A DNA stretch of 64,000 nucleotides from a plasmid. The notes beneath the pieces were generated by a model, which saw only the letters and a program-made list of their open reading frames with translations, was not told the DNA's origin and made no database searches. Location: sequence record NZ_CP081674.1; one strand, written 5' to 3'. This document shows, in pieces, positions 20,492-55,354 of this stretch (the stretch's first letter is position 1; each line of letters starts with the position of its first letter). Both the position numbers and the translations under genes were made by a program.

Positions 20492-20509
20492 GTTCGAACC
20501 TCGGCGTCT

Positions 20510-26448: not shown

Positions 26449-26460
26449 TCGGCCGTTGGG

Positions 26461-37196: not shown

Positions 37197-38105
37197 TTAC
37201 TTGCTGCGAGCCGCGGCTTCAGCGCGCGTCTCATGCTGGCGCAGAAATTCGATCACCAACTCCGACAGGACGTCGGGCTGATCTTCTTGCACCAGCATGT
37301 GGGAATCCTCGATGAATTTGAGGGTTGCGTTCGGCAGGTCGGTGGCCAGGCGTTGACCGTATTCGGCTGGCACCAAATGGTCTTCGCGAGCCCAAGCGAC
37401 GAGGACTGGTTGGGTGATGGAGGCGAATTTGGGCACGACGTCGAGGGTGAATTTGTTGCTCACCCCTTGTGCTACGAAACGGCTCAAGTCTGCACGGATG
37501 TCAGCGCTGGTGCGGCTGGGTAGCAGAAAGCTGTCGAGGACGTCGTCAGGGACCGGCCGTTTGGTGGCAGGGCCGAATGTGAACGGAAGCCGTTGCAGGG
37601 CGCGGATCCGCATGATCTCGGTGACGGCACGGGTGGCCCCGGGGATCTTGATGGCTTTGGTCAACCACTGATAGCGGGCCGGCGGGAACACCTCGTAGCA
37701 GTCCACCGAAGCGAGGACGACCCGGGCGACCCGTTCGGGACGGCGCACCAGCAGGTTCTGGGTGACCACCCCGCCGGAGTCGTTGGCTACCAGGGTGACA
37801 TCGGTGAGTTCGAGCTGGTCGAGAAGGTCCGCAAGCAGATCGGCGACACCGGGTGGGGTGAGGTCTGCGTAGGGCACGGGGATGCTGTGCGCACCCAGGG
37901 GGAGATCCGGTGCGATGCAGCGGTGACCAGCTGCAGCGATCTGGGGTACGACATTACGCCAAGTGTTGGCGTTCATCATGAAGCCGTGGACGAATACCAC
38001 TGGTGATCCGGTTCCGGTCTCGTAATAGCGGATGGCACCGCGCTGCAGGTTGGCTGTGTGCACAGTGCCCAATACAGCGCTATGACGTGCGGTTGATGAA
38101 GTCAT
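37197..38105 (-). CDS. alpha/beta hydrolase fold protein
   Basis: VVFVHGF and ANDSGG nucleophile elbow. Confidence 0.75.
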   Translation of the reverse strand: MTSSTARHSAVLGTVHTANLQRGAIRYYETGTGSPVVFVHGFMMNANTWRNVVPQIAAAGHRCIAPDLPLGAHSIPVPYADLTPPGVADLLADLLDQLELTDVTLVANDSGGVVTQNLLVRRPERVARVVLASVDCYEVFPPARYQWLTKAIKIPGATRAVTEIMRIRALQRLPFTFGPATKRPVPDDVLDSFLLPSRTSADIRADLSRFVAQGVSNKFTLDVVPKFASITQPVLVAWAREDHLVPAEYGQRLATDLPNATLKFIEDSHMLVQEDQPDVLSELVIEFLRQHETRAEAAARSK

Positions 38106-38174
38106 GAGTGTGGTTTCTCGCTTTCGTTTGGAAATGGTTGGTGCTACTGACGTTTCGTGCAGCTATGTGGGGTC

Positions 38175-38681
38175 CTAGGGCCGAATGAGTGAGCGCATCC
38201 CCCCGTAGCGGACCTGTTGACTTACAGCGCTCAGGGCGATGCGTGGTGACACGGTGAACAGTCGCGCCGCAGCCGTCAGTGAGGTACGCGGGCGCACATT
38301 CAGATACCCGTACATCTGGTGATGGATGACCAGGTTGTCCCGGAAAGTCCAGATTTCGGTGCCGAATTGGCTGTGGTCGTTGCGGAATCCACCGCGCCAG
38401 GTCAACACAATTGTGTCAGCCGACGCGCATTCCAGGCGCTTTTGAACTTGTAGATGATGCTGGCGCCACAGTGCGGTCAGCACCGTGAAACCTCGCTGGA
38501 TGGCATCGATGCCCACGTGATACTCACGAACGCCGTCGATGATCCAGTCTGTTACCGCGTCGTCGTGAAACAAGGCGATCGCCTCGTCGAAAGACGCCTC
38601 GTTGGTGATGCGTTCGACATTGGCGGCGAACTGCGTCGCGTTGATCGGTGGCCTCGATGTGGTCTTCGTCGCGGTCATCAA
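38175..38681 (-). CDS. NTF2-like / SnoaL-like superfamily protein
   Basis: Size and pattern typical of SnoaL-like cyclase / NTF2-fold proteins. Divergent from the HxlR regulator. Confidence 0.55.
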   Translation of the reverse strand: MMTATKTTSRPPINATQFAANVERITNEASFDEAIALFHDDAVTDWIIDGVREYHVGIDAIQRGFTVLTALWRQHHLQVQKRLECASADTIVLTWRGGFRNDHSQFGTEIWTFRDNLVIHHQMYGYLNVRPRTSLTAAARLFTVSPRIALSAVSQQVRYGGMRSLIRP

Positions 38682-38779
38682 ATCCTCTTCACTGTCGGTT
38701 CAACGGGTTGAATCATCCGCAGAACATGAAGTTAGCACTTAGTGTTTTAGAAGTGCAAGGTTCATGTTGTATTGTAGGC

Positions 38780-39436
38780 ATGATGGCGAAACGCTCCTAC
38801 AACCAGTACTGCGGGCTTGCCGCTGCGCTCGACCTGCTCGGCGACCGTTGGTCACTTCTGTTGCTGCGCAACTTGTTGCTAGGCCCACAGCGGTTCAAGG
38901 ACCTGCTGGAGGGGTTGCCCGGGATAGGTACCGCGATGCTCACCGAACGGCTCAAGCACTTAGAATCTGCCGCTGTCATCGCCAAACGCACGCTGCCGCC
39001 ACCGGCAGGGTCAACCGTCTATGAACTCACTACCGCGGGCGAGGAACTCCGCCCATTGCTGATGGGCTTCTCCCGCTGGGGCATGGCCCACGCCGGCGTC
39101 AACGCGGGCGAAGGTGTCTATGTTGCGCCGGATCTGCTCGCCCTTGGCCTCCATGCACGCTTCGATCCGGCCGCGGCCGCGGCCGCGGCCGGTACCTATG
39201 CGTTGCACATCGACGATCGCTCCTATCGCATCGAAATCAAGAACGCGACCATTCGCATCTGTGCAGGTGCGATCGATGCACCTCGAGCGTCGATCCGAAC
39301 CGACACCGACACACTCGTGGCCATCGACCAGGGACGCGTGTCGTTCGCATCATCCTTGGGCACTGAAAAACTCACAGTGGATGGCGATCCCGACGCAACG
39401 GTTGCCCTGGCACACGCGTTCGGATTACCGGTCTGA
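38780..39436 (+). CDS. HxlR-family winged-helix transcriptional regulator with a C-terminal extension
   Basis: CGLAAALDLLGDRWSLLLLRNLLLGPQRFKDL is the HxlR signature. Confidence 0.75.
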   Translation: MMAKRSYNQYCGLAAALDLLGDRWSLLLLRNLLLGPQRFKDLLEGLPGIGTAMLTERLKHLESAAVIAKRTLPPPAGSTVYELTTAGEELRPLLMGFSRWGMAHAGVNAGEGVYVAPDLLALGLHARFDPAAAAAAAGTYALHIDDRSYRIEIKNATIRICAGAIDAPRASIRTDTDTLVAIDQGRVSFASSLGTEKLTVDGDPDATVALAHAFGLPV

Positions 39437-39501
39437 CCACGAATATCAACTTGTCGACTGTGACATGAGTACCTGAATCCACAGGTAACACCGTCCAGTA
39501 G

Positions 39502-40004
39502 CTATCGCCCTAGTGCACAACCCGTACGCATCATCGACCTCAAAGACAATCTGACAGATATCGCAACTGAGCTACTGTTCACCTGGTTGCGCGAGGCAAT
39601 CCAACCGTGAGCGGCTGCTGACGGTACTAAGACGGACGAGTTGGTCCCGCGGGGGGAGTGCGGACCTTGACCGGTGATGCTGCGCTCGACCATGCCGCCA
39701 AGGCATTCGCGGGTATGCTCGTCGATGATCGACACGATCTCGATCGGCCGCCCATCGGTGGTCACATCGAACTGGAAGTCCACTGCCCACACCCGGTCGG
39801 GCGCATCAGCGACCACCGCCGGCGGCGCAGTGGTGGTACCGTGTCGTTTACGCTTGCGGCACTGCGGAACCCGCAGCCCCCAGCACGCGCTGGAGGTGAC
39901 GAACGGCTGCCCGCCGACGTTCCGCAGCCATCAGCTTGAGCACAATCTGCTCGGGACTGTGCCACTTCCTCGTCGCCATGATCTTGTCGAACCTTCCTGC
40001 CCAC
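39502..40004 (-). mobile_element. IS3-family transposase remnant (OrfA start plus a partial integrase core)
   Basis: MATRKWHSPEQIVLKL (OrfA-like N-terminus) and WAVDFQFDVTTDGRPIEIVSIIDEHTRECLGGMVERSIT (DDE core fragment). Interrupted by stops and frame changes. Confidence 0.5.
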
Positions 40005-40052
40005 AATGCGTGGGCCGCAAGACTCTCACAAGCTATGGATCAACCAATCGGG

Positions 40053-40769
40053 TCAGGCCAACTGGACTCCCGACAAGGCCGCTACAGCTTGAGCAGTGGT
40101 CCACGTCGCTGAGGCCAAAAATCGAAAGTTGACCAGCGCTGCTAAGTACCCATCGCCTTCTGGCAGCTGAGGTCCTGCTGTGGCGTCACGTACAACAACC
40201 ACCTCAAATCCTTGTTCGATCAGTTCACGTAGGTGGCTCTCCGTGCAGAGATTCGCGGCCATGCCAGCCAGAAGGACCTGTGTCACTGCCCGTTTGCGTA
40301 GTTGAAGGACCAGGTCGTTGGACTGCGGACCGACCAGCTTGTGCGGTGAGGTAATGACCGTTTTGCCGTCCTGGATCCGATCCTTGAATCGTTCGAGATA
40401 GTCAGCACCGGATCCGTCGAAGCCGTCCAGTCTGAGCGGGTTGCTCCGGGCGAACATCCCCACGTTGTGCATGAACCGCTCTAGCGGTCCTCCGAATCGC
40501 CAATCCTGATCGGACGGATAGTAATAATGCGGGGAGATGGCGACGGTCACTTCGGCGTCCTTGGCAGTCGAGAGCAACTGATCGATGTGCTCGACAGTGT
40601 TGTTTGCCTCGACGCTGGGGCCAAACACCGACCATGCGGCACCGTCTGGGCTCAGGAAGTCGTTCTGTGGATCCGTAACAACTAGTGCGGCGTGCGCGGG
40701 ATCAAGCTCGAAGTCTGAGGGTGGCAGCGCTGGTGCGGTGGGCTCGTCGTAGATCGATGGGGTCGACAT
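40053..40769 (-). CDS. isochorismatase-family cysteine hydrolase
   Basis: ALVVTDPQNDF..., VLLAGMAANLC catalytic-Cys region. Confidence 0.8.
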   Translation of the reverse strand: MSTPSIYDEPTAPALPPSDFELDPAHAALVVTDPQNDFLSPDGAAWSVFGPSVEANNTVEHIDQLLSTAKDAEVTVAISPHYYYPSDQDWRFGGPLERFMHNVGMFARSNPLRLDGFDGSGADYLERFKDRIQDGKTVITSPHKLVGPQSNDLVLQLRKRAVTQVLLAGMAANLCTESHLRELIEQGFEVVVVRDATAGPQLPEGDGYLAALVNFRFLASATWTTAQAVAALSGVQLA

Positions 40770-40936
40770 CGGAGTGGAAGTTCCTTTCGTATAGGGACTT
40801 TCATCTGTTTCTTGCCGTATGGATCACATTGAGTTGGACGCGCACGAAGGAGAGGCTCTGCCGATGTCAATAGTGATGACAGCGACGGCAATGCCGTCAC
40901 AAGATCCAGCTTTCCATTGCCCATTGCGGGCGTATG

Positions 40937-41767
40937 TCACGCGAAGTTTGTAGCCAGTTCCTCGAGTCTTGTTCGGATCAGTTCCGGCCGCTGTTCGGCG
41001 ATGAAATGCCCGCAGTGTTCGACGAGTTCGAGTGTGTAATCGTCGGCGTTCGCAGTGCTCGGATCGGCGAGTTCATGACGAATCGCGGCGTCGTCAACGC
41101 CGAACAGCGCCCGAGTGGGGACGTGGCTGCGTCGCCGTTCGGGTCGACGCGCCAAGGCCGGCAGCTCCTGCACCAGCCATGTGCGGTAGGTATCGGTGGC
41201 GGCGCGCGCGACTACAGGGTCACGGAACTGATCGGTGTAGCAACCGATTTCATCAGAATCGAGACCCGCGGGGTTCAGCCTGAAGATCACCTTCTCCAGA
41301 AACGGCGTATATCGGTGCAAAAACATGCCGGCACCGGCAATCGGCGGTTGGTAGAAGGCGAATCGCCAGATGTGACGCAGCGCGGCGCGTGGCCGCTGCC
41401 ACGGGTGTGCGATGTTCAAGGCTAGAAATGCAGCGACCCGGTCGGGTGCGCGCAACGCCATTAGGTGTCCAACCCAGCCACCCCAGTCATGGCCAACGAG
41501 CAGCACTCGGTTGATGCCCAGGGCGTCGAGCAGGGCCAGCACGTCGGTGGCAACATCTTCCTTGGCCCAGCGATGCGGAGCGGGGCCCGACCAGCCGTAG
41601 CCAGGTAGGTCGGGCGCAATAATGCGCAACCCAGGCGGTGGATCAGCCAGCAGATGGCGGTAGGCGTAGTGATGCTGAGGCCAGCCGTGTAGCGCGAGGA
41701 TCACCTTCCCATCGATCGGCCCTGCCTCCGTGACATGAAAGTGTATTCCACGTACAGCCACGGACAT
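40937..41767 (-). CDS. alpha/beta hydrolase (epoxide hydrolase / haloalkane dehalogenase-like)
   Basis: HGWPQ and GHDWGG motifs. Confidence 0.7.
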   Translation of the reverse strand: MSVAVRGIHFHVTEAGPIDGKVILALHGWPQHHYAYRHLLADPPPGLRIIAPDLPGYGWSGPAPHRWAKEDVATDVLALLDALGINRVLLVGHDWGGWVGHLMALRAPDRVAAFLALNIAHPWQRPRAALRHIWRFAFYQPPIAGAGMFLHRYTPFLEKVIFRLNPAGLDSDEIGCYTDQFRDPVVARAATDTYRTWLVQELPALARRPERRRSHVPTRALFGVDDAAIRHELADPSTANADDYTLELVEHCGHFIAEQRPELIRTRLEELATNFA

Positions 41768-41976
41768 GCGGCGTACACCTGGTATCGGCGGTGGGATCGG
41801 CCAACGCTGTTTGAAACTGGGCCGCCGCAGAAGCGAGCCCTCTGTGTCGATACCGTCACGGTGGAGCACCGTCTGGCACGCTGGATCGGAGCCATCTTCC
41901 GCAATACCCATACTGAAAGCACCTTCCTCTCTGATTCACGTTCCGACCGGTGGCCCGACGGCGTCCGCTCCTCGGC

Positions 41977-42384
41977 TCAGGCCGGGGGAGCGAAGAATTC
42001 CAGTGCAATACCGTCGGGATCGCGGAAGCTCAACCCCGACCCGTACTGCGCGTCCATGATCGTGCCGTGCTCGATCCCCAAGTCGTCGAGCCGGAGCAGC
42101 CATGCCTGCAACTCGGCGCGGTCAGCGCACCCAAAGCCGACGTGGTCCAGCCCTGCGCGGAACTCGGTAAAGGCGCCACCGTCTGCCACCTGGGAGTGTT
42201 GGTGGATTCCGAACAAAGTCCCATTGTCGAACTGCCACACCACATGCCGGAACCCAGCATCGGTGTGTTCGTCGAGGACTGGATCGGCGCCGATCAGGGC
42301 TCGATACCAAGGGACGCTGATGTTGAGGTTGCGCACCGTCAACGCGACGTGGGAGAGAGCTGGGAAGCTGGTCGGAGACGCCAT
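41977..42384 (-). CDS. VOC / glyoxalase-bleomycin resistance family protein
   Basis: LSHVALTVRNLNISVPWY and HVGFGCAD patterns. Confidence 0.7.
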   Translation of the reverse strand: MASPTSFPALSHVALTVRNLNISVPWYRALIGADPVLDEHTDAGFRHVVWQFDNGTLFGIHQHSQVADGGAFTEFRAGLDHVGFGCADRAELQAWLLRLDDLGIEHGTIMDAQYGSGLSFRDPDGIALEFFAPPA

Positions 42385-42707
42385 AGGAATTCCTCTTTTC
42401 TCGAGCTCGAACGACGCGCTTGCTGCGTCGCGACTGGTTCGCTTCAAGCTCAAATCAACTGAGCTAGATGGGTCTATCGTGCGATGCCACGGTTATCGAC
42501 ATAGTTGCTGTGGCCTCGTGTCAGGATCGCGAAACTCTTCGACTTGACGAACCAAAAGTTAGCACTTCATCTTTACGAAGCGCAAGCTTCACGTTATATG
42601 CTCTCATTGCGAGGCGCACTATGCGGACCGCCGCGGACGGAGCTCCTCACCTTGAGCGCACTGCGAATGGCAGAACTTGCCGTTCACGCCACCTCGAAGG
42701 AGATGCC

Positions 42708-43385
42708 ATGAACCCCACCATCATGGACGGCTTTGCTGTCGCCAACCGGCTTCATGTCGAAACCAGTTATCGCGCAGCGCAGTTCGAGTATGTCCGAGGC
42801 CGTCGACCGTGTCTGGCGACAGTGCTGGTAGGAGACGACCCAGCTTCACACACCTACGTGCGAATGAAGACCAACCGGTGTCGCACAACCGGTCTGGCCT
42901 CCCAATCCCATCGGCTGCCAGAGGATGCCAGCACCAAGGATGCAGTCAACGTCGTCGGCAAACTGAGCGACGACGAAACCGTGGACGGCATCCTGGTGCA
43001 GCACCCGATGCCGCCTCAGGTTGACGAACGCGAAGTGTTCGAAGCAATCACCCCAGCGAAGGACGTCGACGGTGTCACCGGCGCATCCATTGCCGTGATG
43101 ACACTGGGCACCATGGGTTTTCAGTCCTGCACTCCTGGCGGCATCCTGCGCCTGCTCGACACCTATGACATCAATCCGGCCGGGCAACACGTCGTCGTGA
43201 TGTCAGGTAGTCGCGGAATCGGAGCCATACAAGACCGCTCAGCACGCTGCAGCTTACGAAAAATATCCAGCGACCAGGGACAACTCAACTCTCAGATGGT
43301 TCCGGAAAACGGGGTGGAATCGGACAGCTCTCATGTTTTCCCGGATTACTGTCAACAAGTTCCGGATCGGACAGCAGTTCAGTAA
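42708..43385 (+). pseudogene. folD: folD (methylenetetrahydrofolate dehydrogenase/cyclohydrolase), 3'-truncated at ~43225
   Basis: RBS gaaggag. The first ~175 aa align with FolD (LVGDDPASHTYVRMK...DVDG...GQHVVV). FolD-like sequence is then lost and a foreign low-GC segment follows. Confidence 0.6.
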
Positions 43386-43512
43386 GAACGGGACTTTGAA
43401 TTACATTGTGCACCAACACATTTCGCCGATAAGCTACGATATGTCAGGTTGTCTTGATGGCGCTCTGGTCAACATCAGGAATTCCTGATGTTTTGGGTGT
43501 AGTCTGTTTCAT

Positions 43513-44154
43513 ATGGGATGGGAGTACTCCACCGGCGATCGCGGCAGCGAGTGGCACGAGGGCTACCTCGTGGCCGAGTTCGAAGATGGCCTGCGTGCTC
43601 TGGGAATCAGCGGCACTGGCATTCCGCCCGGGCACCTTGCCGTCGACCAATACGGCGACGGCACCTGGGGTCAGGAGGCCGTTCGGCGCCACGGCGCCGA
43701 TCCCGAGTTTCTAACCCGCCCCGCGGGCGCAGTCATCGGCTGGCGGGCCGTATGCAATTGCTACGGTGCCGGTGACCTCATGCCGACCAAACATTGGTCG
43801 AGTCAACATCTTTGGTCACGGGTACCCTCACCGATCCGGCATGATCCATCCGCTTTCCGTATCTACGCGGCCGATGAAGATGTGCTCGACGTGATCACCA
43901 GCGACGCTGATGCCGTCGCGCACGACGTGTGGTGGAACGACCACATCAAGGCCGTCGACGTCGAAGCCGCTATCGAGACAGCGCTAGCGGCAATACGCGC
44001 CGGGGAAGTTCAGCTCGACGAAGCGGTTATTAGAGCCCGACAGAATCGCATGTCCTGGGCGAAAATCGGCGCCGCAGCGGGAATGTCACCCCAAGCCGCT
44101 CATGAACGCTGGTCCAAACGATGCATTCCCAACCCTGAGAGGCCGAGCGGCTGA
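43513..44154 (+). CDS. hypothetical protein
   Basis: 213-aa ORF, first gene after the low-GC junction. Confidence 0.4.
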   Translation: MGWEYSTGDRGSEWHEGYLVAEFEDGLRALGISGTGIPPGHLAVDQYGDGTWGQEAVRRHGADPEFLTRPAGAVIGWRAVCNCYGAGDLMPTKHWSSQHLWSRVPSPIRHDPSAFRIYAADEDVLDVITSDADAVAHDVWWNDHIKAVDVEAAIETALAAIRAGEVQLDEAVIRARQNRMSWAKIGAAAGMSPQAAHERWSKRCIPNPERPSG

Positions 44155-44155
44155 A

Positions 44156-44722
44156 ATGAATCCCTACGCACGAACCCTCTCGTCGCACCTGACCGAACTC
44201 GGTGTGCCAGAAACTCTCACGCGCCAGCTGGATTTCGGTGAGACCGGAATCTGGCCACCGCGGGCCGGGTGCGGGCCGAGCCCCGATCGACTCACACTCG
44301 TCCGGTTGTGGGCGCGCATTGATCTCGACCAGTGGGTCACCGAGGCGCCGCAGGCATTCGGACCGCACAGGGCCGGCGAGCTTGCCCGCCTGGTGGCTGT
44401 CGGTGCAGCGCTGCGGCATGCAGGTGAAGGCGCCCAGGTCCTCTGGGGTGTTGATCTTGTGGCGGCACAGTGGTGGATTGACCACGACTCCCCTGGTCTC
44501 GCAGCCGCGGGGCTTGTGTGCTTGGGGCCGCATTTACCTGAACCGCTCGTCAAAAGCGTCGATTCCGTACTCGCGGCCATCGGGTGGGCATGCCCGGCTG
44601 ACATCGACGCCAATCAGCCATGCATCATCAATGGTGTTCCGTGCTTTCACACCACCTGGCACGACGGAAACTCCGTGCTCGAAAACCACACGGACACACG
44701 GCCGATCCAACGAGGTGCATGA
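44156..44722 (+). CDS. hypothetical protein
   Basis: The ATG falls immediately after the upstream stop. Confidence 0.4.
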   Translation: MNPYARTLSSHLTELGVPETLTRQLDFGETGIWPPRAGCGPSPDRLTLVRLWARIDLDQWVTEAPQAFGPHRAGELARLVAVGAALRHAGEGAQVLWGVDLVAAQWWIDHDSPGLAAAGLVCLGPHLPEPLVKSVDSVLAAIGWACPADIDANQPCIINGVPCFHTTWHDGNSVLENHTDTRPIQRGA

Positions 44723-44901
44723 CCGTGGCTGCTGGGTACTGGGTGGTGCGTATCAACCGAGACACGGGTGAAGCCAGCACCGAACCACTGATCGACGACA
44801 GAGACGAGGCGTATCAGCGGAGTCTCGATCTCGAAACCACAGAGACCGCAACGACAGTGGTCCCCCGTCGAACTGCATCCCGAGGAGAGTGCACACCATG
44901 A
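44719..44901 (+). CDS. small hypothetical protein (60 aa)
   Basis: ATGA overlap with the upstream gene. Confidence 0.3.
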   Translation: MTVAAGYWVVRINRDTGEASTEPLIDDRDEAYQRSLDLETTETATTVVPRRTASRGECTP

Positions 44902-44971
44902 CGAACTACTGCATGACTGCCGTTCCGAGTCGGAAACGATCGATGAAATCAGATGGAAGGTGGGGGCTCAC

Positions 44972-45523
44972 ATGGGTCGGGTAACAGCGTTTCGCCTCAG
45001 GCTAACCCCGCGACAGCGTGAACTCCTCCGCACGTACCTGTGGGTGAATGCCGACAGCGTCTATGACGACATCGAGGAGCGGGGCGCTCACCCTGTGGAC
45101 GCATCATCGGGATGGTGGATGATTCTTGACCGCCTACCGAGCGAGTGCTGGGATCGTCCGGCCAGTTGGCGACGGGAACTGGCGCGGGCATTCGATGACC
45201 TCGCTAACGACCTGGAAGATGGCAACCTGCCCTACCCACGTTGTGTGGCCGAGGAAATCGCGCTCGTGCTCGCGGTGTCCAACGCCCAGGCCGCTCATCT
45301 GGACGGTGAGTATGGAGACGAAGTGGCAGACCTGCCAGAGACCGCAGGCGACGGGGATTGGCTGTCAGCGACGAACACGCTCGTGGGTGAACGGCACATC
45401 GACTGGCACATGCCCCCTGGCGACACACCCGCCTGGCTGGGCGATGTGCCAGACCCGACGAGCTGGTTCGATGTCTTCGACGGGTTCGAGACGCGGCCCG
45501 CCGACCGAGGATTCCGACGTTGA
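44972..45523 (+). CDS. hypothetical protein
   Basis: RBS ggaaggtggggg before the ATG at 44972. Confidence 0.4.
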   Translation: MGRVTAFRLRLTPRQRELLRTYLWVNADSVYDDIEERGAHPVDASSGWWMILDRLPSECWDRPASWRRELARAFDDLANDLEDGNLPYPRCVAEEIALVLAVSNAQAAHLDGEYGDEVADLPETAGDGDWLSATNTLVGERHIDWHMPPGDTPAWLGDVPDPTSWFDVFDGFETRPADRGFRR

Positions 45524-45580
45524 TGAGCGTCACTGAGCTGCAGTCGGCGTACGACCGCATCTTGCCCAAGCAGGTGTGTC

Positions 45581-46264
45581 TTGGGTTCTGAATGGGCTGC
45601 ACCGCTGTCAGCTCTCGCGGCTCTCGGAGGAGCAGTCATCGGTGGTGGTCTATCGCTGTTCGGCGGTGCGCTGACCTCTCGTAGACAGTCAGCGGACAAG
45701 CGAGCCGAACTGCACCAACAGGTGGTCGCAAGCTCGCGCGAGTTCGTAATCGGGGAGATACGGACACTCTTGGCCGCACTCGATGAGTTCCTACAGGTGC
45801 TTCGCGAGGCCGAAGCCATCTCGGCCCAGCGTGAAGCAGCGATCGAGAAGGACCGGACAAGTGAGGCCGTGGACCGAGCGTTACGTGGGCCACAGCGAGG
45901 GATCAGTCTTGGTGAGGACATTAGCCCACAGTTCCGTAGCCGCCCGGAGTTCGACCTCTTATTCAAGGAGTGGCGTGAACGAGTGCGCAACGCACTACCT
46001 ATGCTGCAGGATGCGGTGAGTTCCGTCGAAATAGCTGTGCCCGCGCGGCTTGCAGTCCACGCCGAGACCTTCCTTCTTCGCGCCGAATCACTGGTCAAGA
46101 GCTTCGCCCGCGCGCCAGGCATCTCCCCTGTGACAGGTGCCGATATCACCGAATTCACAAGGGCTCGGGCCGATTTGGTCGGAGAAGTTAGAGCCTGGCT
46201 GTCCGCCGACGATTACTTGCAGCGGCCCCCGGACCGAGCACGGGCGACCCGACGAACGCGATGA
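45581..46264 (+). CDS. hypothetical membrane-anchored protein
   Basis: TTG start. N-terminal hydrophobic segment AAPLSALAALGGAVIGGGLSLFGGAL. Confidence 0.35.
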   Translation: MGSEWAAPLSALAALGGAVIGGGLSLFGGALTSRRQSADKRAELHQQVVASSREFVIGEIRTLLAALDEFLQVLREAEAISAQREAAIEKDRTSEAVDRALRGPQRGISLGEDISPQFRSRPEFDLLFKEWRERVRNALPMLQDAVSSVEIAVPARLAVHAETFLLRAESLVKSFARAPGISPVTGADITEFTRARADLVGEVRAWLSADDYLQRPPDRARATRRTR

Positions 46265-46413
46265 CGATCCCGTCTCACTCAATTGAACACATACGTGGCG
46301 GAGACAAGCCGCGCCGAGTGCATCGACTCGGCGCACCGAACAGGTTCGCACTTCACTGCGAACCTGGCGACAGTGCTGGAATTTGATCGAGCGCTCTAGC
46401 TACTGTCCAGCTC

Positions 46414-46692
46414 ATGGCCACAGCTACAAGCTCACGTCTCGAAGACGCCGAATCATCCTTGCACTCAGCCGAATCTGAGTCGGACCCTTCGCGGCGTTCC
46501 CAGTTCGCGCAGGCCGCACTGGACTCTGCAGCGGAAGTCGCATGGGACTCAAGTGCCACCGTCGAAGACCGCGCCAACGCGCGCGCGATCATGCGAACCT
46601 CCCTCAAACTGCGGGTCCAGTCCGTCCAACACCGCCGATTCGCGCGAGGGCAGGATCGGGGCCTAGATGACCGCGGTGCCGAACTCTCGTGA
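46414..46692 (+). CDS. small hypothetical protein
   Basis: 92-aa ORF. Confidence 0.3.
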   Translation: MATATSSRLEDAESSLHSAESESDPSRRSQFAQAALDSAAEVAWDSSATVEDRANARAIMRTSLKLRVQSVQHRRFARGQDRGLDDRGAELS

Positions 46693-46764
46693 TCGCCTGA
46701 CCCCCACTCCGGTTGGGCGACCTTATGATTCGGCAGGCCGCATCCGACACCGGGTCGTCGCCCG

Positions 46765-47103
46765 CTACGGACGTCCTGTACCTGTGGCAGGCATGCTCGG
46801 CGCCAACAGTTCGCCGGGAGCGACTCCGAGCACCTGGGCGATATGAACCACTACGACGGCAGTGGGGTTCTTGCGTCCACCTTCAATGTGGTTCAGATGT
46901 GGCCTGCCAATACCAGCGCGCTCCGCGAGCTCGGCTTGTGTCAGACCCGCCTGCAGACGGTGGTCCCGGATGGCAGCACCGAGGGCGGCCAGGATGACGG
47001 AATCATCGCTGGACGTGTCCGTCACGGCCGCTCCTCTCCATAGGCGTTGCCCAAAGGCTACACCGGGAGTGATCGTGTCGGGGCGTTCAGAACAGGACAG
47101 CAT
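46765..47103 (-). CDS. XRE-family HTH regulator
   Basis: AGLTQAELAERAGIGRPHLNHIEGGRKNPT HTH. Lies immediately downstream of the PAPS-reductase-like gene. Start uncertain. Confidence 0.5.
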   Translation of the reverse strand: MLSCSERPDTITPGVAFGQRLWRGAAVTDTSSDDSVILAALGAAIRDHRLQAGLTQAELAERAGIGRPHLNHIEGGRKNPTAVVVVHIAQVLGVAPGELLAPSMPATGTGRP

Positions 47104-48286
47104 CAGTCGTGGCCTCCTGCCACCATTGTTCGAATCCGGCGCGCTGCTTGTCCTCGACAACAGCCGGGCACACCACGTAAAAGTGCTCCAGGTCCGGTTT
47201 TTCGGCGGTGCGCTGACGAACGATGTGACGCAGGATGCCATCTCCCCCTACACGAGGAACACCTGGCGCCAACGCCAGGGCGTCACTCATCTCTTGGCGC
47301 GTCCCCCGCTTCGTGGCCCGCACCGATCGTGCGACGGTTCCGCACCCGTCTGGCCGTTTCGACGATCGACGGGTCAGCCGCCGGACCTCGTAGATCGCGT
47401 GCTCGCAACCGTCGAGCGTCGCCTGGAACCGGCGCTCTACGTCCTCGAGGTTGGCTTGTGCGGCGAGCGCCGCGGCGGAGCTCCCCTGGATGAGGGTCTG
47501 GCGTTCGTTGAGCCTGCGGGCCACGTCCTCGAGGAACAGGGCGCGCGCGCCCTGGTGCGGTTCCCGCCGCCATCTCTCTACGACGTCCCGCCGGCCGGCC
47601 TCAGTGGTCATCGCAAACGGACAGAAGCCGCACGCTGATTTCGACCATCGGCGACCGGTGATCTGCGTGATGAAATCCGTGCACTGCGCCCGATCCCAAC
47701 CCCAGTCCTGCAACGGGTACCAGCCGGTGCGCTGGTCGGTATTGAACAGAGCATCCTTGACAGCCCTTGACGGCTCCCCGCTTTCGAAACCGACGACATG
47801 ACGATAACTCCGTCCGGCGGTGACCGTGGCGATGACAGGATCCAGGCAATTTCCTTTGGCGTGGATCGAGCACAGGCGCGTGCCACCGATCTGGGGAAGC
47901 GTTCCCGCCGAGAGCAGCTCATCCTCCAGTGTGTACGCGGCACCGTACAGACGCTTGGGAGCGGTGGAGTCCTGCAGCACCGCAACCCCTTCCCCGCTCG
48001 TGCTGGTCTTTCGTTGAGACCGGCCTACCTGGATGAAACGAACGCCGCGACGAGATAGCTCAGGAAGAACGACTTCCTCGACGTCGCGGATCGTCTCATC
48101 GAACTCTCCCCCAGTGTCTGCCGCGATGACGACGAGGTCTCGCAGATCGAAGTCACGGGTTGATGGTTCGGTGAACCACCGCAGCAGGATGGCGGTCGAG
48201 TCAACGCCCATCCCGTAACTCATCACAACCATTGGGCTGCAGTCGGACTCGCTCACGATGGGTAGTTGATCCTGGCTGGCAGTCAT
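47087..48286 (-). CDS. PAPS reductase-like / PP-loop ATP pyrophosphatase family protein (DndC/BrxP/IbrA-like)
   Basis: N-terminal PP-loop VVMSYGMGVDSTAIL. C-terminal Cys cluster SACGFCPF. Confidence 0.65.
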   Translation of the reverse strand: MTASQDQLPIVSESDCSPMVVMSYGMGVDSTAILLRWFTEPSTRDFDLRDLVVIAADTGGEFDETIRDVEEVVLPELSRRGVRFIQVGRSQRKTSTSGEGVAVLQDSTAPKRLYGAAYTLEDELLSAGTLPQIGGTRLCSIHAKGNCLDPVIATVTAGRSYRHVVGFESGEPSRAVKDALFNTDQRTGWYPLQDWGWDRAQCTDFITQITGRRWSKSACGFCPFAMTTEAGRRDVVERWRREPHQGARALFLEDVARRLNERQTLIQGSSAAALAAQANLEDVERRFQATLDGCEHAIYEVRRLTRRSSKRPDGCGTVARSVRATKRGTRQEMSDALALAPGVPRVGGDGILRHIVRQRTAEKPDLEHFYVVCPAVVEDKQRAGFEQWWQEATTDAVLF

Positions 48287-48314
48287 CAGACTCCTCCTGA
48301 CACTTCCTCGAAAG

Positions 48315-48358
48315 GTGTTGCCTATAGGCTACATCAGGGTGTAGCCTATAGGCAACAC
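48315..48358. promoter_or_regulatory. perfect 19-bp inverted repeat with a 6-bp spacer (GTGTTGCCTATAGGCTACA-TCAGGG-TGTAGCCTATAGGCAACAC) in the divergent promoter region
   Basis: Lies between the PAPS-reductase-like gene (minus) and the C5-MTase gene (plus). Each arm contains the self-complementary CCTATAGG. Confidence 0.7.
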
Positions 48359-48381
48359 GTTCGGTTGAGGAGGTAGACCAG

Positions 48382-50115
48382 ATGCTCGAAATAATGGATT
48401 GGTTCTGCGGGGCCGGAGGCTCGTCACAGGGTATGCACGCCGTACCGCACGTCCGGGTCACCAAGGCGGCCAATCACTGGGACAAGGCGATCGAGTCGCA
48501 CGCTGCCAACTTCCCCGACACCGACCACTACCTCGGCGACATCCGCGAGGCCCCCGTGGCGAAATGGCCCGTCGCAGACATCTTCTGGGCATCACCCGAA
48601 TGCCCACAATGGTCAACGGCACGAGGTAAAAAGCGCGACTTCGACGCGACGCTGCAGGGCGACCTGTTCGACACCCCACGCGACGAAGAGGCCGATCGCT
48701 CCCGCGCCCTCATGGAAGAAGTCCCGATGTACCTGCGCGGCGTCATCGAACGCGGTGGCCGAGTCCGGGCCGGGGTGGTCGAGAACGTCGTCGAGGTACG
48801 CGCATGGGACCAATGGGACCGCTGGATCGGCGAGATCCGCAGCCTCGGCTACCGAACCCGCGTCATCGCTATGAATTCCATGCACGCTCAACCAGGCCGC
48901 ACGCTGCCAGCCCCACAGTCACGCGACCGCCTCTACGTGGCCTACTGGGACAAAGCCCTGCGCCGCGAACCCGACTGGGACAAATGGCTCCGACCCCGCG
49001 CGTACTGCACGACATGCGACGAATGGATCGACGCGATCCAGGTGTTCAAGAAGCCCGGCGCCGACATGGGCCGCTACCGCAGCCAGTACGTCTACAGGTG
49101 CCCCCACGTGGCATGCCGCAACGCCATCGTCGAACCACCAGCCATGCCCGCCGCCGATGCAATCGACTGGACACTGCCCGGTGAGCGCCTCGGCGACAAG
49201 CCGCTACGGGAATTCAGGAACAAGGACACGGGCAAGGTGGTCGTCGCCCCGCTCGCCCCTAAGACGATGGCTCGGATCACGGCCGGAATCGAACGCTACT
49301 GGGCCCCGTTTATCACCGAGCACCGGCACGAGTATCGAGTCCGTGGTGTCGATGTACCGCTGCAAACCGTGGCGGCCGCGGGCAACCACTTCGGCTTGGC
49401 CGTGCCGATCGAAGGCCGCGACGGCAAGGTCGCCGCCCCGGTCGAGCTGCCTCTGAGGACCGCCACCACCCGCAACGAAACCGCCCTCGTGGTGCCGTGC
49501 GGCGGAACCTGGCGCGATGCAGCCACTACCGCCAACGTGCCGATATCGACCCGCACCACACGCGAATCCGACGGCATCGCCTTCCCCCCGTTCGTCGCCG
49601 AATTGCGCGGCGGCGCAAGCGACGTCCGCTCTGTCAACGACCCTCTCGCGACCGTCACAGCCTCGGGCAACCACCACGGACTCATCACCAGCTACTACGG
49701 CAACGGAAGCACCCACAGCACGGACGAAGCCCTCGCTACGGTCACCGCGATCCACCGGCACGCATTGCTGATGCGCAACAACGGAGTTCGCGGAGGACAC
49801 CCGGCCCGCCACACCACGCCCATCGATGAGCCAGCACGCACCGTCACTACCTCCGGGCACCAGTCACTACTAACCGCCCACGCACTGCCCATCGACCTCA
49901 GCGACGTGCTCTTCCGCATGCTGGAACCGCACGAGATCGGCCGCGCAATGGCCTTCGGACGCAACTACGTCGTCCTCGGAAACAAGCGCCAGCGAGTCCG
50001 CCAGTACGGCAACGCCGTCACTCCCCCGGTCGCCGGAGTCATCGTGTCAGCACTCGTCGAGGCAATCACCGGCGAAACGATCGAGCGATGGCCACACGAC
50101 CTGGCTGCGGCCTAG
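48382..50115 (+). CDS. DNA (cytosine-5)-methyltransferase
   Basis: Motif I DWFCGAGG, motif IV SPECPQWS (PC), motif VI ENV, and the C-terminal QYGNAVTPPVA. RBS gaggagg. A large variable region. Confidence 0.85.
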   Translation: MLEIMDWFCGAGGSSQGMHAVPHVRVTKAANHWDKAIESHAANFPDTDHYLGDIREAPVAKWPVADIFWASPECPQWSTARGKKRDFDATLQGDLFDTPRDEEADRSRALMEEVPMYLRGVIERGGRVRAGVVENVVEVRAWDQWDRWIGEIRSLGYRTRVIAMNSMHAQPGRTLPAPQSRDRLYVAYWDKALRREPDWDKWLRPRAYCTTCDEWIDAIQVFKKPGADMGRYRSQYVYRCPHVACRNAIVEPPAMPAADAIDWTLPGERLGDKPLREFRNKDTGKVVVAPLAPKTMARITAGIERYWAPFITEHRHEYRVRGVDVPLQTVAAAGNHFGLAVPIEGRDGKVAAPVELPLRTATTRNETALVVPCGGTWRDAATTANVPISTRTTRESDGIAFPPFVAELRGGASDVRSVNDPLATVTASGNHHGLITSYYGNGSTHSTDEALATVTAIHRHALLMRNNGVRGGHPARHTTPIDEPARTVTTSGHQSLLTAHALPIDLSDVLFRMLEPHEIGRAMAFGRNYVVLGNKRQRVRQYGNAVTPPVAGVIVSALVEAITGETIERWPHDLAAA

Positions 50116-53415: not shown

Positions 53416-53958
53416 TCATCGTTGGCTTCCCAACATTTCCCCCGCGCTCGTGGGCTCTTCCCGCTGCGCCTGGGCCTCAACCGAAACACCCTGCCCGGCG
53501 TCCGAAGATGCCTCGACGCCTCGGTCACCTAGTGCTTGCGGATCTTCCGGCGACACGGCCCGTGGTTCGCCGGAACCTAGTGCCTGCGAACGGCTCCCGG
53601 CGGCGTCTCGAAGGCTCGGAGTCTGGGCGGCCAGTTTGATGTAGCTGCGGACCAACTTTTCCGGGACATCCCCCAGCGCGGCGATGTCTTTGATGGTCTC
53701 CCCCCGTGCCTTCAGGCGGGCCAGCGCCTTGGCGCCTTCCACCCGTTGTTCGTGGCGCCGCTGCTCAGCTTCACCTCGTACCTGCGCAAGGTGCTCGGCC
53801 TCCCAACCGTCGACGGCCTGAAGCTTCTGTTCAGCCAGCAGGAACGCCACCATGTCCTCGCGGTTGTCCGATTCCCTTTTGAGCCGTTCCTGCTGAGCTC
53901 TGGTCTGCGCTTCGCGGACCTTGCGGCGTACATCGCTCCGAGACTCGATCTTGGCCAT
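53416..53958 (-). CDS. coiled-coil hypothetical protein divergent from the relaxase
   Basis: Charged heptad-like region (RRKVREAQTRAQQERLKRESDNRE...). Confidence 0.4.
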   Translation of the reverse strand: MAKIESRSDVRRKVREAQTRAQQERLKRESDNREDMVAFLLAEQKLQAVDGWEAEHLAQVRGEAEQRRHEQRVEGAKALARLKARGETIKDIAALGDVPEKLVRSYIKLAAQTPSLRDAAGSRSQALGSGEPRAVSPEDPQALGDRGVEASSDAGQGVSVEAQAQREEPTSAGEMLGSQR

Positions 53959-54264
53959 GGTGCGGACCGTACGGCGGCGCGGCGGGCCGAGTCCAACAGT
54001 AGCTCCACATTCGCCCTGATCGAATTTTCTTTCCCTCCACACCGATTGAGCTTTGCGCGATCTGAGTTTGATGCTCCGGTCCCACCTCAGCGTGGCTCTG
54101 TCATCGCGATCCACCAGTATTTCGAAGCCACCCGAGCACCCCCGCCGGCATCCAGCCGCCGTCTACCCAAAGCCACACACCTCTTGCACTCAGGATCACA
54201 GTTCGATAACGATCCCAGGGCTACTGTTGGATTTGACGTGCGTCAAGTTTCTAACGTGCGGCTC

Positions 54265-55293
54265 ATGACGGCCACGCTGCACAAACTCACCGCCGGTGAT
54301 GGCTACCTGTATCTGATCCGCCAGGTCGCTGCGCACGACACCACCGAGCGCGGACGCAACACCCTCTCCGATTACTACTCGGCCAAAGGTGAATCCCCCG
54401 GCCGCTGGGTTGGCAAGGGGTTGGCATCACTGTCGTATACCGGGGTACGTGGCGTATCCCAACAGGTCAAAGACGAGGTCTGGACGGTACCCGAAGGGTC
54501 CGAGGTCACCGAGGAACAGATGGCAGCACTGTTCGGGGAAGGGTTGCACCCCAACGCCGTTGACATCGCCAACCATCAGGTAGGTCGAGGCGCACCTGCC
54601 CACGTCGCGATCAAGGCGGCTCATCTGGGCCGGCCATTCACCGTGCGCAGCGGGGCGACCGAGTTTCAAAAGGCACTCGCGGTCGCCTACCGCGAGTACA
54701 ACGCCGAGCACGGCAAGCGATGGAACGCACCCATCCCTGACGAGGTCCGTGCCCGACTGCGCACCACCATCGCGCGTGAACAATTCAGCGAGGAATACGA
54801 CCGCGAGCCCGCCGATGACCGCGAGCTTTCCGGCTTCATCGCGCGCAACTCACGGCTACCTACCACCGCCGTCGCCGGCTACGACATCACGTTCTCACCG
54901 GTGAAATCGGTGTCGACGCTGTGGGCCATCGCCCCCCTGGATGTGTCGGCCGCGATCGAAGAGTGCCACGACGCCGCGGTGACAGATTCGTTGGCGTTCA
55001 TCCAACAAAACGCCGCGTTCACCCGCATCGGTGCCGGCGGTGTCGCCCAAGTGGATACGACAGGCCTCATCGGAACAGCCTTCACACACCGCGATTCGCG
55101 CGCGGGTGACCCGGATCTGCACACGCACGTGGCGATTTCGAACAAGGTCGCCTACATCGACGCACACGGCGTGCAGCGTTGGCTGGCGCTGGACGGACAA
55201 CCCCTGCACCGCATGATGGTGAGCGCTTCTGAGCTCTACAACACCCGACTCGAGGCGCATTTGGAGGAGCGCCTCGGGCTGCGATTTCGCTGA
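54265..55293 (+). CDS. traA: MobF/TrwC-type relaxase, N-terminal relaxase domain (first part of a frameshifted traA)
   Basis: YYSAKGESPGRWVG (catalytic Tyr region) and HRDSRAGDPDLHTHVAISN (3-His motif). Confidence 0.8.
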   Translation: MTATLHKLTAGDGYLYLIRQVAAHDTTERGRNTLSDYYSAKGESPGRWVGKGLASLSYTGVRGVSQQVKDEVWTVPEGSEVTEEQMAALFGEGLHPNAVDIANHQVGRGAPAHVAIKAAHLGRPFTVRSGATEFQKALAVAYREYNAEHGKRWNAPIPDEVRARLRTTIAREQFSEEYDREPADDRELSGFIARNSRLPTTAVAGYDITFSPVKSVSTLWAIAPLDVSAAIEECHDAAVTDSLAFIQQNAAFTRIGAGGVAQVDTTGLIGTAFTHRDSRAGDPDLHTHVAISNKVAYIDAHGVQRWLALDGQPLHRMMVSASELYNTRLEAHLEERLGLRFR

Positions 55294-55354
55294 GGTCACA
55301 CCCCCCGGCCGCAACAAGCGACCGATCCGCGAGATTGTCGGCGTCAGCACCGAA

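Follow-up and report, generated by a model that had tools for sequence, protein, structure and literature searches.

A truncated folD gene within a defective transposon-like segment beside a dif-type Xer site on a Mycolicibacterium farcinogenes plasmid

The folD-like gene of the Mycolicibacterium farcinogenes replicon CP081674, a conjugative plasmid of 148,235 bp (GC 63.3%, one tRNA; deposited record and published table), is broken inside an accessory segment (17984-43373) that, by the anatomy of its ends, looks like a defective DDE-type transposon. The analysis covered a 64,000-nucleotide stretch of this plasmid (the window). With a probability of roughly 65%, we favour the explanation that such a transposon sits on the plasmid beside a dif-type site and that folD was cut by a deletion inside the element. 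The truncated gene and what follows it are as follows.

42708-43200, plus strand: folD′, an accessory FolD paralogue reduced to its N-terminal 164 codons
43200-43385, plus strand: read-through tail of the chimeric ORF, 61 codons and a stop, non-coding

The chimeric ORF runs from the ATG at 42708 to a stop at 43383-43385 and encodes 225 aa. Pfam recognizes a complete N-terminal catalytic domain (PF00763, THF_DHG_CYH; aa 6-121, profile positions 1-115 of 115, E = 1.8e-34) and matches the NAD(P)-binding domain PF02882 over profile positions 5-49 of 160 only, at 26.9 bits and below the cut-off of 27; the complete domain with its GxSxxxG motif is absent. Homology to FolD is lost at 43200-43202, after 164 of ~281 codons, leaving the catalytic domain and the first Rossmann-domain strand; the GRSxIVG nucleotide-binding motif is gone. 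By BLASTP, the product is 74% identical to its best relative in an alignment that ends at aa 172, with the last 8 positions attributable to chance. Close FolD relatives, to which 76% of the query aligns, are all ~281 aa long. Two folD relatives match the DNA at 78% and 72% as far as 43201 and at 25-30% past this point, and solved FolD structures (281-303 aa) align only to aa 168-173. Thus, Pfam, BLASTP and DNA identity all agree with the first-pass annotation, which had described a FolD-like start followed by an unrelated tail before the stop; the truncation stands, with the proposed lengths of ~175 residues and ~50 codons corrected to 164 and 61. Its statement that the 3′ end of folD was destroyed is likewise borne out; a search of all frames across the whole 64 kb did not find the C-terminal half.

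The third codon positions of the 61-codon tail have a GC content of 0.48, compared with 0.70 in the FolD part; the tail is therefore non-coding read-through, and the corresponding DNA is non-coding in plasmid pCBMA213_2 and in metagenome relatives. Relative to the full-length mycobacterial-type paralogues, folD′ has an intact N-terminal catalytic domain but lacks residues ~165-281, the NAD(P)-binding Rossmann domain, and judging from the sequence its product cannot be a functional FolD enzyme. It nevertheless carries the NCBI label bifunctional FolD (WP_221853535.1) and needs a pseudogene flag. An intact housekeeping folD elsewhere is plausible because folD′ is an accessory paralogue; M. tuberculosis FolD is among the solved structures that it matches. 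As such, an accessory plasmid gene in truncated form is routine.

Comparison with L148, a contig from a related plasmid, defines the segment that contains folD′.

17984-43373, no strand: accessory segment of 25,390 bp, comprising cargo, a nested island and two repeat-array ends; absent from L148

L148 is 99.25% identical to window positions 8252-17983, and its homology returns at 43374; 132 nt that are unrelated to the window separate the two matching blocks. An HTH/DUF6036 gene pair and a homologue of ORF43513 lie only 812 nt apart on L148. As L148 lacks 17984-43373 and continues at 43374, the folD side is the insertion: the whole segment, folD′ included, is inserted DNA, and the conjugative genes are conserved backbone. 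The insert lies between two divergent backbone units, the leftward HTH/DUF6036 pair and the rightward ORF43513 operon, which leads towards the relaxase and coupling-protein genes. Backbone genes flank the cargo on both sides, with NlpC/P60, an N6 methylase and a 2072-aa helicase on the left and a TrwC/MOBF relaxase and a T4CP on the right. The relaxase ORF is broken at a C6 homopolymer, which is probably a Nanopore sequencing error. A megablast search of PLSDB returned no close relative of the window.

These coordinates reverse the polarity proposed in the first-pass annotation, which had placed chromosomal-type DNA on the left and an element on the right, with their boundary at 43200-43520. 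The true cargo/backbone boundary is 43373/43374. The break in folD lies 173 bp to its left, inside the insert, where folD′ directly adjoins the right end at its innermost repeat; the junction is therefore probably an internal deletion scar. The suggestion of a recombination scar thus survives, and that of the left boundary of an integrated element does not, the replicon being a plasmid with no chromosome/ICE junction. The described run of small hypothetical genes after the junction is present and is followed by methylase, nrdH, relaxase and coupling-protein genes. The reported drop in GC is real as a local dip: GC falls to 0.475-0.515 within 43200-43500 and is 0.487 over 43201-43512. This dip spans ~310 bp, is confined to non-coding DNA and resembles the intergenic DNA upstream of folD (0.51-0.54). 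A lower-GC module on the right is not seen, since the genes there (43513-64000) have a GC of 0.636, compared with 0.602 for the folD-side cargo (28499-43200) and 0.642 for the left backbone; it is the inserted DNA that is poorer in GC. No direct repeat of the junction occurs within the window.

Both extremities of the segment carry arrays of one repeat motif.

17990-18121, minus strand: left-end array A, terminus 5′-TGTCCGATCCGG
43201-43373, plus strand: right-end array B, terminus ...CCGGATCGGACA-3′ at 43373, the L148 boundary

The motif is 18 nt long (CTSTCA-N4-KTYSCGGA) and occurs in array A at 17997(-), 18039(+), 18074(-) and 18104(-) and in array B at 43200/1-43217, 43289-43306, 43328-43345 and 43349-43366, so that the arrangement of copies in the left array is unlike that in the right; array B has one inner copy fewer than its relatives, which have five. 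Scans of the window gave 5-7 matches in two clusters, compared with 0.03-1.4 expected from shuffles (0.03-0.3 for the two stricter motif patterns). The segment termini TGTCCGATCC and GGATCGGACA are inverted and of the form 5′-TGT...ACA-3′, with subterminal repeat copies as in DDE elements with multi-repeat ends of the Tn7, Tn402, Mu and IS21 types, and the right terminus coincides with the L148 boundary to the base. We infer that the arrays, which are about 175-250 bp long, are putative transposase-binding ends. On a metagenome contig, L140, a 2.1-kb element is complete, has the same ends and lies between two copies of ACCAG; this 5-bp target duplication is a single example, expected by chance in about 1 of 1000 cases. 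The window element is flanked by AATCGG on the left and GCAGT on the right and has no target duplication, and the 132 nt at this place in L148 are unexplained.

Apart from an unrelated IS3 fragment, Pfam and NCBIfam gave no rve, TniB, TniQ or IstA/B match for a cognate DDE transposase in the window element, and a search beside the related arrays of pCBMA213_2 and metagenome contigs found no transposase either. An IS21-like istB fragment abuts the array on L140, at the same position as folD′ to within 2 nt. Members of the IS21 family have TG..CA termini, multiple terminal repeats and target duplications of 4-8 bp, and the first two features are shared by the element described here. However, the element contains neither istA nor istB, the istB fragment on L140 points the other way and is cut short by the array, and the repeats of the one IS21-like element examined, on Rhodococcus pRWAY02 (GGGGAATTACGTGAC), are unrelated. 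An assignment of the arrays to IS21 was rejected on these grounds, the L140 match being an inverted, truncated istB fragment.

Immediately to the right of the element, the backbone carries a predicted recombination site.

43374-43421, plus strand: backbone spacer of 48 nt between element and Xer site, 100% identical to L148
43422-43449, plus strand: dif-type Xer site, 28 bp; XerC arm TTCGCCGATAA, centre GCTACG, XerD arm ATATGTCAGGT

The predicted site has the 28-bp architecture of two 11-nt arms around a 6-nt centre, with 0 and 2 arm mismatches to an actinobacterial consensus built from 120 genomic sites, and is the only full dif-like site in the window. It matches the predicted dif of Frankia alni (PMC3025954). 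A conserved gene adjoining the motif was sought in 118 genomic loci and none was found, as expected for chromosomal dif sites. The conserved 46-nt motif at this place had also been considered as a promoter or ssDNA promoter, a reading dropped in favour of dif. Between window and L148, the alignment is identical at 73 of 73 positions up to 43446 and then falls to about 70%, with 41/66 and 489/642; the switch at 43447 lies at the Xer core. From these sequences, plasmid lineages appear to have been joined at the dif-type core, and Xer activity is predicted there. The spacer, which begins with the presumed target pentamer GCAGT (43374-43378), is ~75% identical to plasmids of M. aubagnense and M. 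paragordonae, both without an array.

In the window, in pCBMA213_2 and on contigs L135/139, L137/141 and L138, a dif-like site has the right end described above at a distance of 45-58 nt from its XerC arm. The spacers at these loci are unrelated, the orientation is alike, and the arrangement recurs in other Actinobacteria. This pattern suggests that dif-like sites are targeted by the element. L148 and the plasmids of M. aubagnense, M. paragordonae and Gordonia have a dif-like site without arrays.

Beyond the Xer site, the features up to the first backbone gene are as follows.

~43442-43459: putative operator O1, a weaker related palindrome overlapping the XerD arm
43471-43492, no strand: operator O2, perfect 22-bp palindrome AACATCAGGAATTCCTGATGTT; unique, 0 expected
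43500-43505, plus strand: -10-like hexamer TAGTCT, 7 nt before the ATG
43513-44154, plus strand: ORF43513, the first backbone gene, of a conserved actinobacterial plasmid family

The element ATCAGG-N4-CCTGAT occupies the same place in eight plasmids, in which a TAnnnT hexamer is also kept at equal distance from the ATG; by its position, TAGTCT suggests a leaderless promoter for the backbone operon. A generic sigma-70 scan of 42300-43700 found no promoter, and Rfam gave no match at E <= 1 in 41500-45000. The ORF43513 family is represented by 65 homologues and occurs on 44 actinobacterial plasmids in PLSDB. The AlphaFold2 model (pLDDT 91.6) predicts a beta-rich N-terminal domain, a long helix and a C-terminal HTH; a Foldseek comparison with the PDB found nothing significant.

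The proximity of arrays and dif-like sites allows a different reading, namely that the arrays are cis-acting plasmid sequences belonging to these sites, either Xer accessory or operator/centromere sequences, and that the folD junction is a random illegitimate deletion. Accessory sequences of cer and psi lie on the XerC side of the core. Array B does so too, both arrays face outward towards backbone promoters, and this reading would fit the missing transposase and the missing target duplication in the window. We nevertheless consider it unlikely, because L148 has the same dif-like site, spacer and flanking genes without arrays, and the plasmids of M. aubagnense, M. paragordonae and Gordonia keep the site in the same bare form. 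Moreover, the arrays are located at both extreme ends of the insert with inverted TG..CA termini, array A has no dif-like partner, and on L140, which lacks a dif-like site, the element is flanked by a 5-bp duplication.

Xer recombination itself might have made the folD junction, with the cargo as a unit similar to a pdif module and 43198-43208 as a half-site of hybrid origin. At the break, TGATGTCAGGT has only 2 mismatches to the XerD-arm consensus and shares 12 of 13 nt with the real site 241 bp away, where the mosaic breakpoint is found. Yet this sequence is the first half of the array motif, and all relatives have it at the homologous position. To the left of the break, neither a XerC arm nor a plausible central region is seen, a second full dif-like site is absent from the window, and 48 nt separate the real core from the cargo/backbone boundary (43373/4). 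Such an origin is accordingly very improbable. Two readings of the corresponding 13-nt repeat, ATGTCAGGT[A/T]GTC (43200 and 43441), one as a target duplication or MITE and the other as a hybrid half-site for Xer, were rejected: the first copy is the innermost array unit, at the homologous position in relatives, and no XerC arm stands before it.

An artefact, either a join of unrelated reads or an indel mimicking truncation, would be conceivable in a Nanopore-only assembly (ONT R10.3; Flye, Racon, Medaka) in which the relaxase gene is split at a homopolymer. It is made highly improbable by an independent Logan assembly of the same reads, which has the identical folD junction on a 22.6-kb contig, and by the DNA after the break, a coherent conserved module. 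A frameshift does not explain the truncation, since none of the three frames carries homology past the break and the window nowhere contains the C-terminal half.

The cargo of the element contains a second, nested insertion.

18613-19697, minus strand: TetR regulator (Pfam TetR_N) and Mpo1-like gene, with 91% and 80% aa identity to genes on L143/L144
19698-28498, no strand: nested island in the cargo cluster, splitting the GDSL-Mpo1 adjacency of L143/L144; Pfam, NCBIfam
22103-23713 and 23427-25706: tandem tyrosine recombinases of the nested island
25703-26134: DUF6262 gene of the nested island
26461-27930: GjpA-type porin gene of the nested island
28403-28474, minus strand: tRNA-Ala(TGC), the single tRNA of the plasmid; ARAGORN and published CP081674 table
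28499-29110, minus strand: GDSL hydrolase gene, 3′-truncated, aligning only to residue 190 of 245 of relatives
39502-40006, minus strand: IS3-family transposase fragment inside the cargo, M. avium IS3 match

On the metagenome contigs L143/L144, the counterparts of the TetR and Mpo1-like genes directly follow the GDSL gene; by this comparison, the two genes are the continuation of the hydrolase cargo cluster. The island between them and the GDSL gene holds an M78/HTH gene, the two recombinase genes, the DUF6262 and porin genes and the tRNA gene. Since the tRNA-Ala and integrase genes belong to this island within the cargo, they were rejected as an element boundary. The IS3 fragment has 84% nt identity over 209 nt to M. 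avium IS3 transposase genes and a weak rve match.

The notion that the junction is the left boundary of a conjugative or mobilizable element integrated in a chromosome, its integration having cut a chromosomal folD, can practically be dismissed: conjugation genes do lie to the right, chromosomal-type hydrolase and folD genes to the left, and a tRNA-Ala and tyrosine recombinases occur within the window, but the replicon is a deposited 148-kb plasmid with backbone also to the left of the cargo, L148 marks the folD side as the insertion, the tRNA and recombinases are 15-20 kb away in an island that breaks the cargo cluster, and the junction has neither an att-like repeat nor an integrase gene within 17 kb.

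If the segment is a defective transposon, its history may have run as follows. A transposon-like segment would have entered between the divergent backbone units, with its right end towards the Xer site and 48 bp from the XerC side. Most likely, a deletion inside the element then joined the 5′ 164 codons of folD to the right end at its innermost remaining repeat. It would have taken the 3′ half of folD, the innermost repeat copy and the DNA in between, in which the transposition genes may have lain, and it may reflect a transposase that used this inner TGTCAGG repeat as a pseudo-end. After such a deletion, the reading frame would extend for 61 non-coding codons into the transposon end. Both mechanism and order of the deletion are inferred. 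The syntenic contig L144 carries another FolD paralogue, with 52% identity, so the donor arrangement downstream of folD was not recovered; no relative with an intact folD-to-array interval was found.

Several known systems resemble parts of this arrangement. The Tn5053/Tn402 'res-site hunters' share TGT...ACA termini, several subterminal repeats per end and a 5-bp target duplication (here on L140), and their orientation-specific insertion beside a plasmid multimer-resolution site would have its analogue here. Like the Tn402 derivatives known as class 1 integrons, the element is defective and cargo-laden, with both ends kept and transposition genes lost. In contrast to these transposons, no TniA/B/Q/R or other DDE gene was found, the neighbouring site is a dif-type XerC/XerD site instead of a serine-resolvase res site, and the host belongs to the Actinomycetota. 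We take the end sequences to be unrelated to those of Tn402. PMC10132070 describes IS1202-group (ISAjo2) insertion sequences that target dif/pdif sites in Acinetobacter; on plasmids, they adjoin dif-like sites at the XerC side with a single orientation, as seen here. These insertion sequences have a size of 1.5 kb and simple 24-26 bp terminal repeats, compared with arrays of ~175-250 bp here, and their distance from the XerC arm is 5 bp instead of 45-58 bp.

The predicted Xer site resembles cer of ColE1, psi of pSC101 and Acinetobacter pdif in being a 28-bp plasmid site of XerC arm, 6-bp centre and XerD arm, and, as in pdif shuffling, different plasmid lineages appear to be joined exactly at the core. 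It differs from them in being near-identical to the chromosomal dif consensus and in overlapping an operator-like palindrome of a conserved HTH gene. Unlike Acinetobacter dif modules, the 64 kb contain one full site, the cargo is not bounded by cores and the boundary lies 48 nt away.

A broader proposal, which we put forward tentatively and hold to be possible at somewhat less than even odds, is that these are undescribed actinobacterial 'dif hunter' elements, inserted in one orientation 45-58 bp from the XerC arm and carrying cargo of 2 to >25 kb. The dif-type site would be active for XerCD and join mycobacterial plasmid lineages, and an operator of the ORF43513 family over the XerD arm would couple Xer recombination to control of the backbone genes.

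Taken together, L148 and the window provide a base-precise pair of empty and occupied sites for a 25-kb cargo element on plasmids of clinical non-tuberculous mycobacteria. Near-consensus dif sites are present on mycobacterial and Gordonia plasmids, where plasmid lineages appear to be joined, and repeat-ended elements of one kind recur next to these sites. If the proposal is true, Xer-site-linked gene mobility would reach Actinobacteria, beyond Acinetobacter pdif modules and Tn5053-type res hunters, and an entry point for cargo on these plasmids would be indicated.

The folD-like reading frame at the junction is a chimera of 225 codons (ATG at 42708, stop at 43383-43385). Its product contains a complete FolD catalytic domain (aa 6-121), and the match to the NAD(P)-binding domain covers just the first 45 of 160 profile positions, with a score under the curated threshold (Pfam). 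The best relative aligns without gaps to residue 172 at 74% identity, and beyond VVV (codons 162-164) the sole matches are S and G; alignments to solved structures of FolD (M. tuberculosis 2C2X among them) end at residue 168-173. When the DNA is compared in codon register, two relatives are 78% and 72% identical up to 43201 and 25-30% identical beyond. Among 5.8 billion proteins searched, the exact 225-aa sequence occurs once, and thousands of FolD relatives of about 281 aa cover just 76% of it. Because homology is lost, the C-terminal half is encoded in no frame across the 64-kb window, and GC3 is 0.48 in the 61-codon tail versus 0.70 in the FolD part, the truncation is real and not a frameshift. 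A recombination scar at this point, one of the readings proposed in the first-pass annotation, is thereby upheld. The same junction is present in an independent assembly of the same sequencing run. The truncated gene, folD' (42708-43200, plus strand), is an ordinary pseudogene. Several Rhodococcus plasmids carry full-length accessory folD paralogues (PLSDB matches, ~68% nucleotide identity), and this FolD type is thus a recurrent plasmid cargo gene.

The further proposal that the junction forms the left boundary of an integrated conjugative or mobilisable element does not hold, as the folD side is itself an insertion, on a plasmid, and the break lies inside its cargo. Relative to L148, a related plasmid contig, identity is 99.25% at 8252-17983 and returns from 43374, at 78% for the first gene and 84% for 44143-48409. 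The distance from an HTH/DUF6036 gene pair to the homologue of ORF43513, the first backbone gene on the right (on L148 under an M. houstonense annotation), is 812 nt in L148 versus 25.8 kb in the window. Therefore, 17984-43373 (25,390 bp, folD' included) is an insertion relative to L148. Plasmid and conjugation genes lie on both window flanks. The GC content does dip after folD, to 0.475-0.515, but only over ~310 non-coding bp; with values of 0.602 for the cargo on the left, 0.636 for the genes on the right and 0.642 for the left backbone, the argument for a lower-GC conjugative module on the right is reversed.

Features of the insertion and its flanks (window coordinates)
Left flank: NlpC/P60, N6 methylase and 2072-aa helicase genes
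16373-17670 (-): XRE HTH gene and DUF6036 nucleotidyltransferase gene, backbone, toxin-antitoxin-like module
17997 (-), 18039 (+), 18074 (-), 18104 (-): motif copies of array A, the left-end repeats
18323-18313 (-), 18405-18394 (-), 28533-28544 (+): three copies of CCTACAGATAA(G), 11-12 nt
19698-28498: nested island with M78-peptidase/HTH gene, two tandem tyrosine recombinases, DUF6262, GjpA-type mycolata porin and tRNA-Ala(TGC)
39.5-40.0 kb: IS3 fragment within the cargo
43200/1, 43289, 43328, 43349 (all +): motif copies of array B, the right-end repeats
Right flank: C5 methylase, nrdH, MOBF/TrwC relaxase and T4CP genes

The exact FolD fragment and a hydrolase encoded nearby both lie on a single 148,235-bp record of Mycolicibacterium farcinogenes. 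This record, CP081674, the plasmid of a clinical isolate, comprises 148,235 bp with 145 genes, no rRNA and one tRNA, has a GC content of 63.3% (chromosome, 66.5%), and was assembled from Nanopore reads SRR15372744 alone (PMC8601135). The relaxase gene occupies two frames (53746-55293 and 55355-60169), and since six consecutive C (about 55293-55298) coincide with the break in this Nanopore-only assembly, a homopolymer error is more likely than a true pseudogene. The HTH/DUF6036 module is common to several mycobacterial plasmids and 99% identical in L148.

The cargo genes match two metagenome contigs at 76-91% amino acid identity; shared genes encode TetR, Mpo1-like, GDSL hydrolase, dienelactone hydrolase, esterase, alpha/beta hydrolases, amidase, epimerase, HxlR and isochorismatase proteins. 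This cluster is split by the nested island, which cost the GDSL hydrolase gene its 3' end (~55 codons). Given the island, the cut gene and the IS3 fragment, the cargo is a heavily rearranged mosaic with at least three truncated genes, folD' among them. The arrangement of the tandem recombinases and DUF6262 resembles that of Tn554 or recombinase-in-trio elements, and the island's tRNA-Ala is the sole tRNA of the plasmid. One copy of CCTACAGATAA(G) lies exactly at the end of GDSL homology and two inverted copies between TetR and array A; they may represent ends or att sites of the island. The region 18312-18420 contains ~105 non-coding nt, 76-79% identical to M. aubagnense and M. dioxanotrophicus plasmid sequences, with counterparts at three places in the latter, and might represent a small repeat element.

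Mutually inverted repeat arrays occupy both extremes of the insertion. In the window, the 18-nt motif CTSTCA-N4-KTYSCGGA is confined to these clusters (shuffle controls predict 0.03-0.3 matches for two stricter patterns). The left terminus reads 5'-TGTCCGATCCGG from 17990, and the right terminus, CCGGATCGGACA-3', ends at 43373, the exact point where L148 identity returns. The right-end module also occurs in plasmid pCBMA213_2 and eight metagenome contigs, some with five motif copies spaced by 41, 90, 39 and 21 nt; in array B the last three of these spacings are preserved and the innermost copy is missing. On contig L140, a 2.1-kb element with the same termini is complete and has ACCAG at either side. 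Transposons of the Tn7, Tn402, Mu or IS21 type characteristically combine TG..CA termini with subterminal repeats and a 5-bp duplication. We infer that the arrays are transposon ends, with a probability of roughly 0.65. Three observations weaken this reading: no copy examined (window element and related arrays) contains a transposase gene, the window element shows no target duplication (AATCGG left, GCAGT right), and L148 has 132 unexplained nt at the insertion site. With no transposase found and the duplication drawn from one example, L140, there is no firm assignment to a transposon family; the nearest described systems are res hunters of the Tn5053/Tn402 type together with their defective derivatives laden with cargo, IS1202-group IS that target dif, and the plasmid Xer sites cer, psi and pdif.

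Within this arrangement, folD-derived DNA extends to 43200/43201 and the innermost surviving repeat, TGTCAGGTAGTCGCGGAATCGG, begins at 43201/2. Because this repeat aligns with a counterpart copy in every right-end relative, the folD junction lies 173 bp within the element and not at its boundary. The two sides of the junction share no more than 1-2 nt of microhomology. L140 has an IS21-like istB fragment, truncated and inverted, that abuts the array at the same position, within 2 nt; that independent junctions occur twice at one repeat hints at a cause. The junction repeat begins with TGTC, as does the true left terminus; speculatively, it may serve as a pseudo-end for transposase-promoted adjacent deletion. 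Minimally, a deletion or illegitimate recombination would have taken the folD 3' half, the innermost repeat and everything between. The transposition genes may have been among the lost DNA, by analogy with class 1 integrons, which retain Tn402 ends.

A dif-type Xer site, TTCGCCGATAA GCTACG ATATGTCAGGT (43422-43449), lies 48 nt to the right of the element terminus, and no second full site exists in the 64-kb window. The derived pattern matches at least 120 loci in one-genome-per-species contigs (~17 chance matches expected by our own estimate), with one site each and nearly all in Actinomycetota. Judged by sequence, their consensus, tTCGCCGATAA-nnnACA-TTATGTCAAGT, corresponds to dif of Actinobacteria; for comparison, CACGCCGATAATGCACATTATGTCAAGT is predicted as dif in Frankia alni, and E. 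coli dif reads GGTGCGCATAATGTATATTATGTTAAAT (PMC3025954). A query across the site matched 17 PLSDB plasmid records, nearly all actinobacterial. One locus, at 4000-4046 of NZ_LR594676.1 ('Variovorax sp. PBS-H4 plasmid 2'), combines an actinobacterial-type site with the plasmid-specific upstream TTGTGCAGCAAC motif; for a plasmid labelled betaproteobacterial, this implies either DNA transfer or a misassigned record. Window and L148 agree at 73/73 positions over 43374-43446 (spacer, XerC arm, centre and first 8 nt of the XerD arm), versus 41/66 over 43447-43512 and 489/642 in the first gene. This switch from ~100% to ~70% at the core fits a central-region crossover between two plasmid lineages, an indirect but specific sign of site use.

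The gene behind the site, ORF43513 (43513-44154), belongs to a family that NCBI names 'AsnC family protein', with members on 44 PLSDB plasmids (Gordonia, Arthrobacter, Mycobacterium and others). In Gordonia and Mycolicibacterium plasmids with comparable hit coordinates, such sites lie 55-105 nt upstream of family members, even at only ~33% protein identity. Eight plasmids share two ATCAGG-N4-CCTGAT palindromes downstream of the core, the first overlapping the XerD arm and the second a perfect 22-mer (43471-43492 in the window). A TAnnnT hexamer lies 7 nt before the ATG in 8/8 plasmids (TAGTCT, 43500-43505 in the window), a spacing that would fit a leaderless mycobacterial promoter. The AlphaFold2 model is confident (pLDDT 91.6) and combines a 47-residue helix with a beta-rich domain at the N-terminus and an HTH at the C-terminus; against the PDB, no significant match was found save the generic HTH. 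The protein is a plausible candidate autoregulator. A 51-aa ORF in the Logan annotation (43333-43488, plus strand), spanning the transposon terminus and the site, is almost certainly spurious.

The window and seven loci (L002, L004, L006, L007, L009, L147 and L148) consistently have a dif-type site, or an XerD-arm-only variant, and the two palindromes preceding the family gene. In L006 (~5909), L007 (~5911) and L147 (~9925), a tyrosine recombinase gene encoded by the plasmid immediately precedes the homologue; there the XerC arm is replaced and just an XerD-like arm is kept, which suggests a switch of recombinase partner. Full-text searches on dif-like sites of actinobacterial plasmids yielded general dif/Xer surveys alone, and nothing was returned on dif-targeting transposons in Actinobacteria, which points only weakly to novelty. 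At five different dif-like sites with unrelated spacers, the XerC arm has an array-type end 45-58 nt away, and plasmids with such a site yet without an array exist; this pattern suggests that the element targets dif-like sites.
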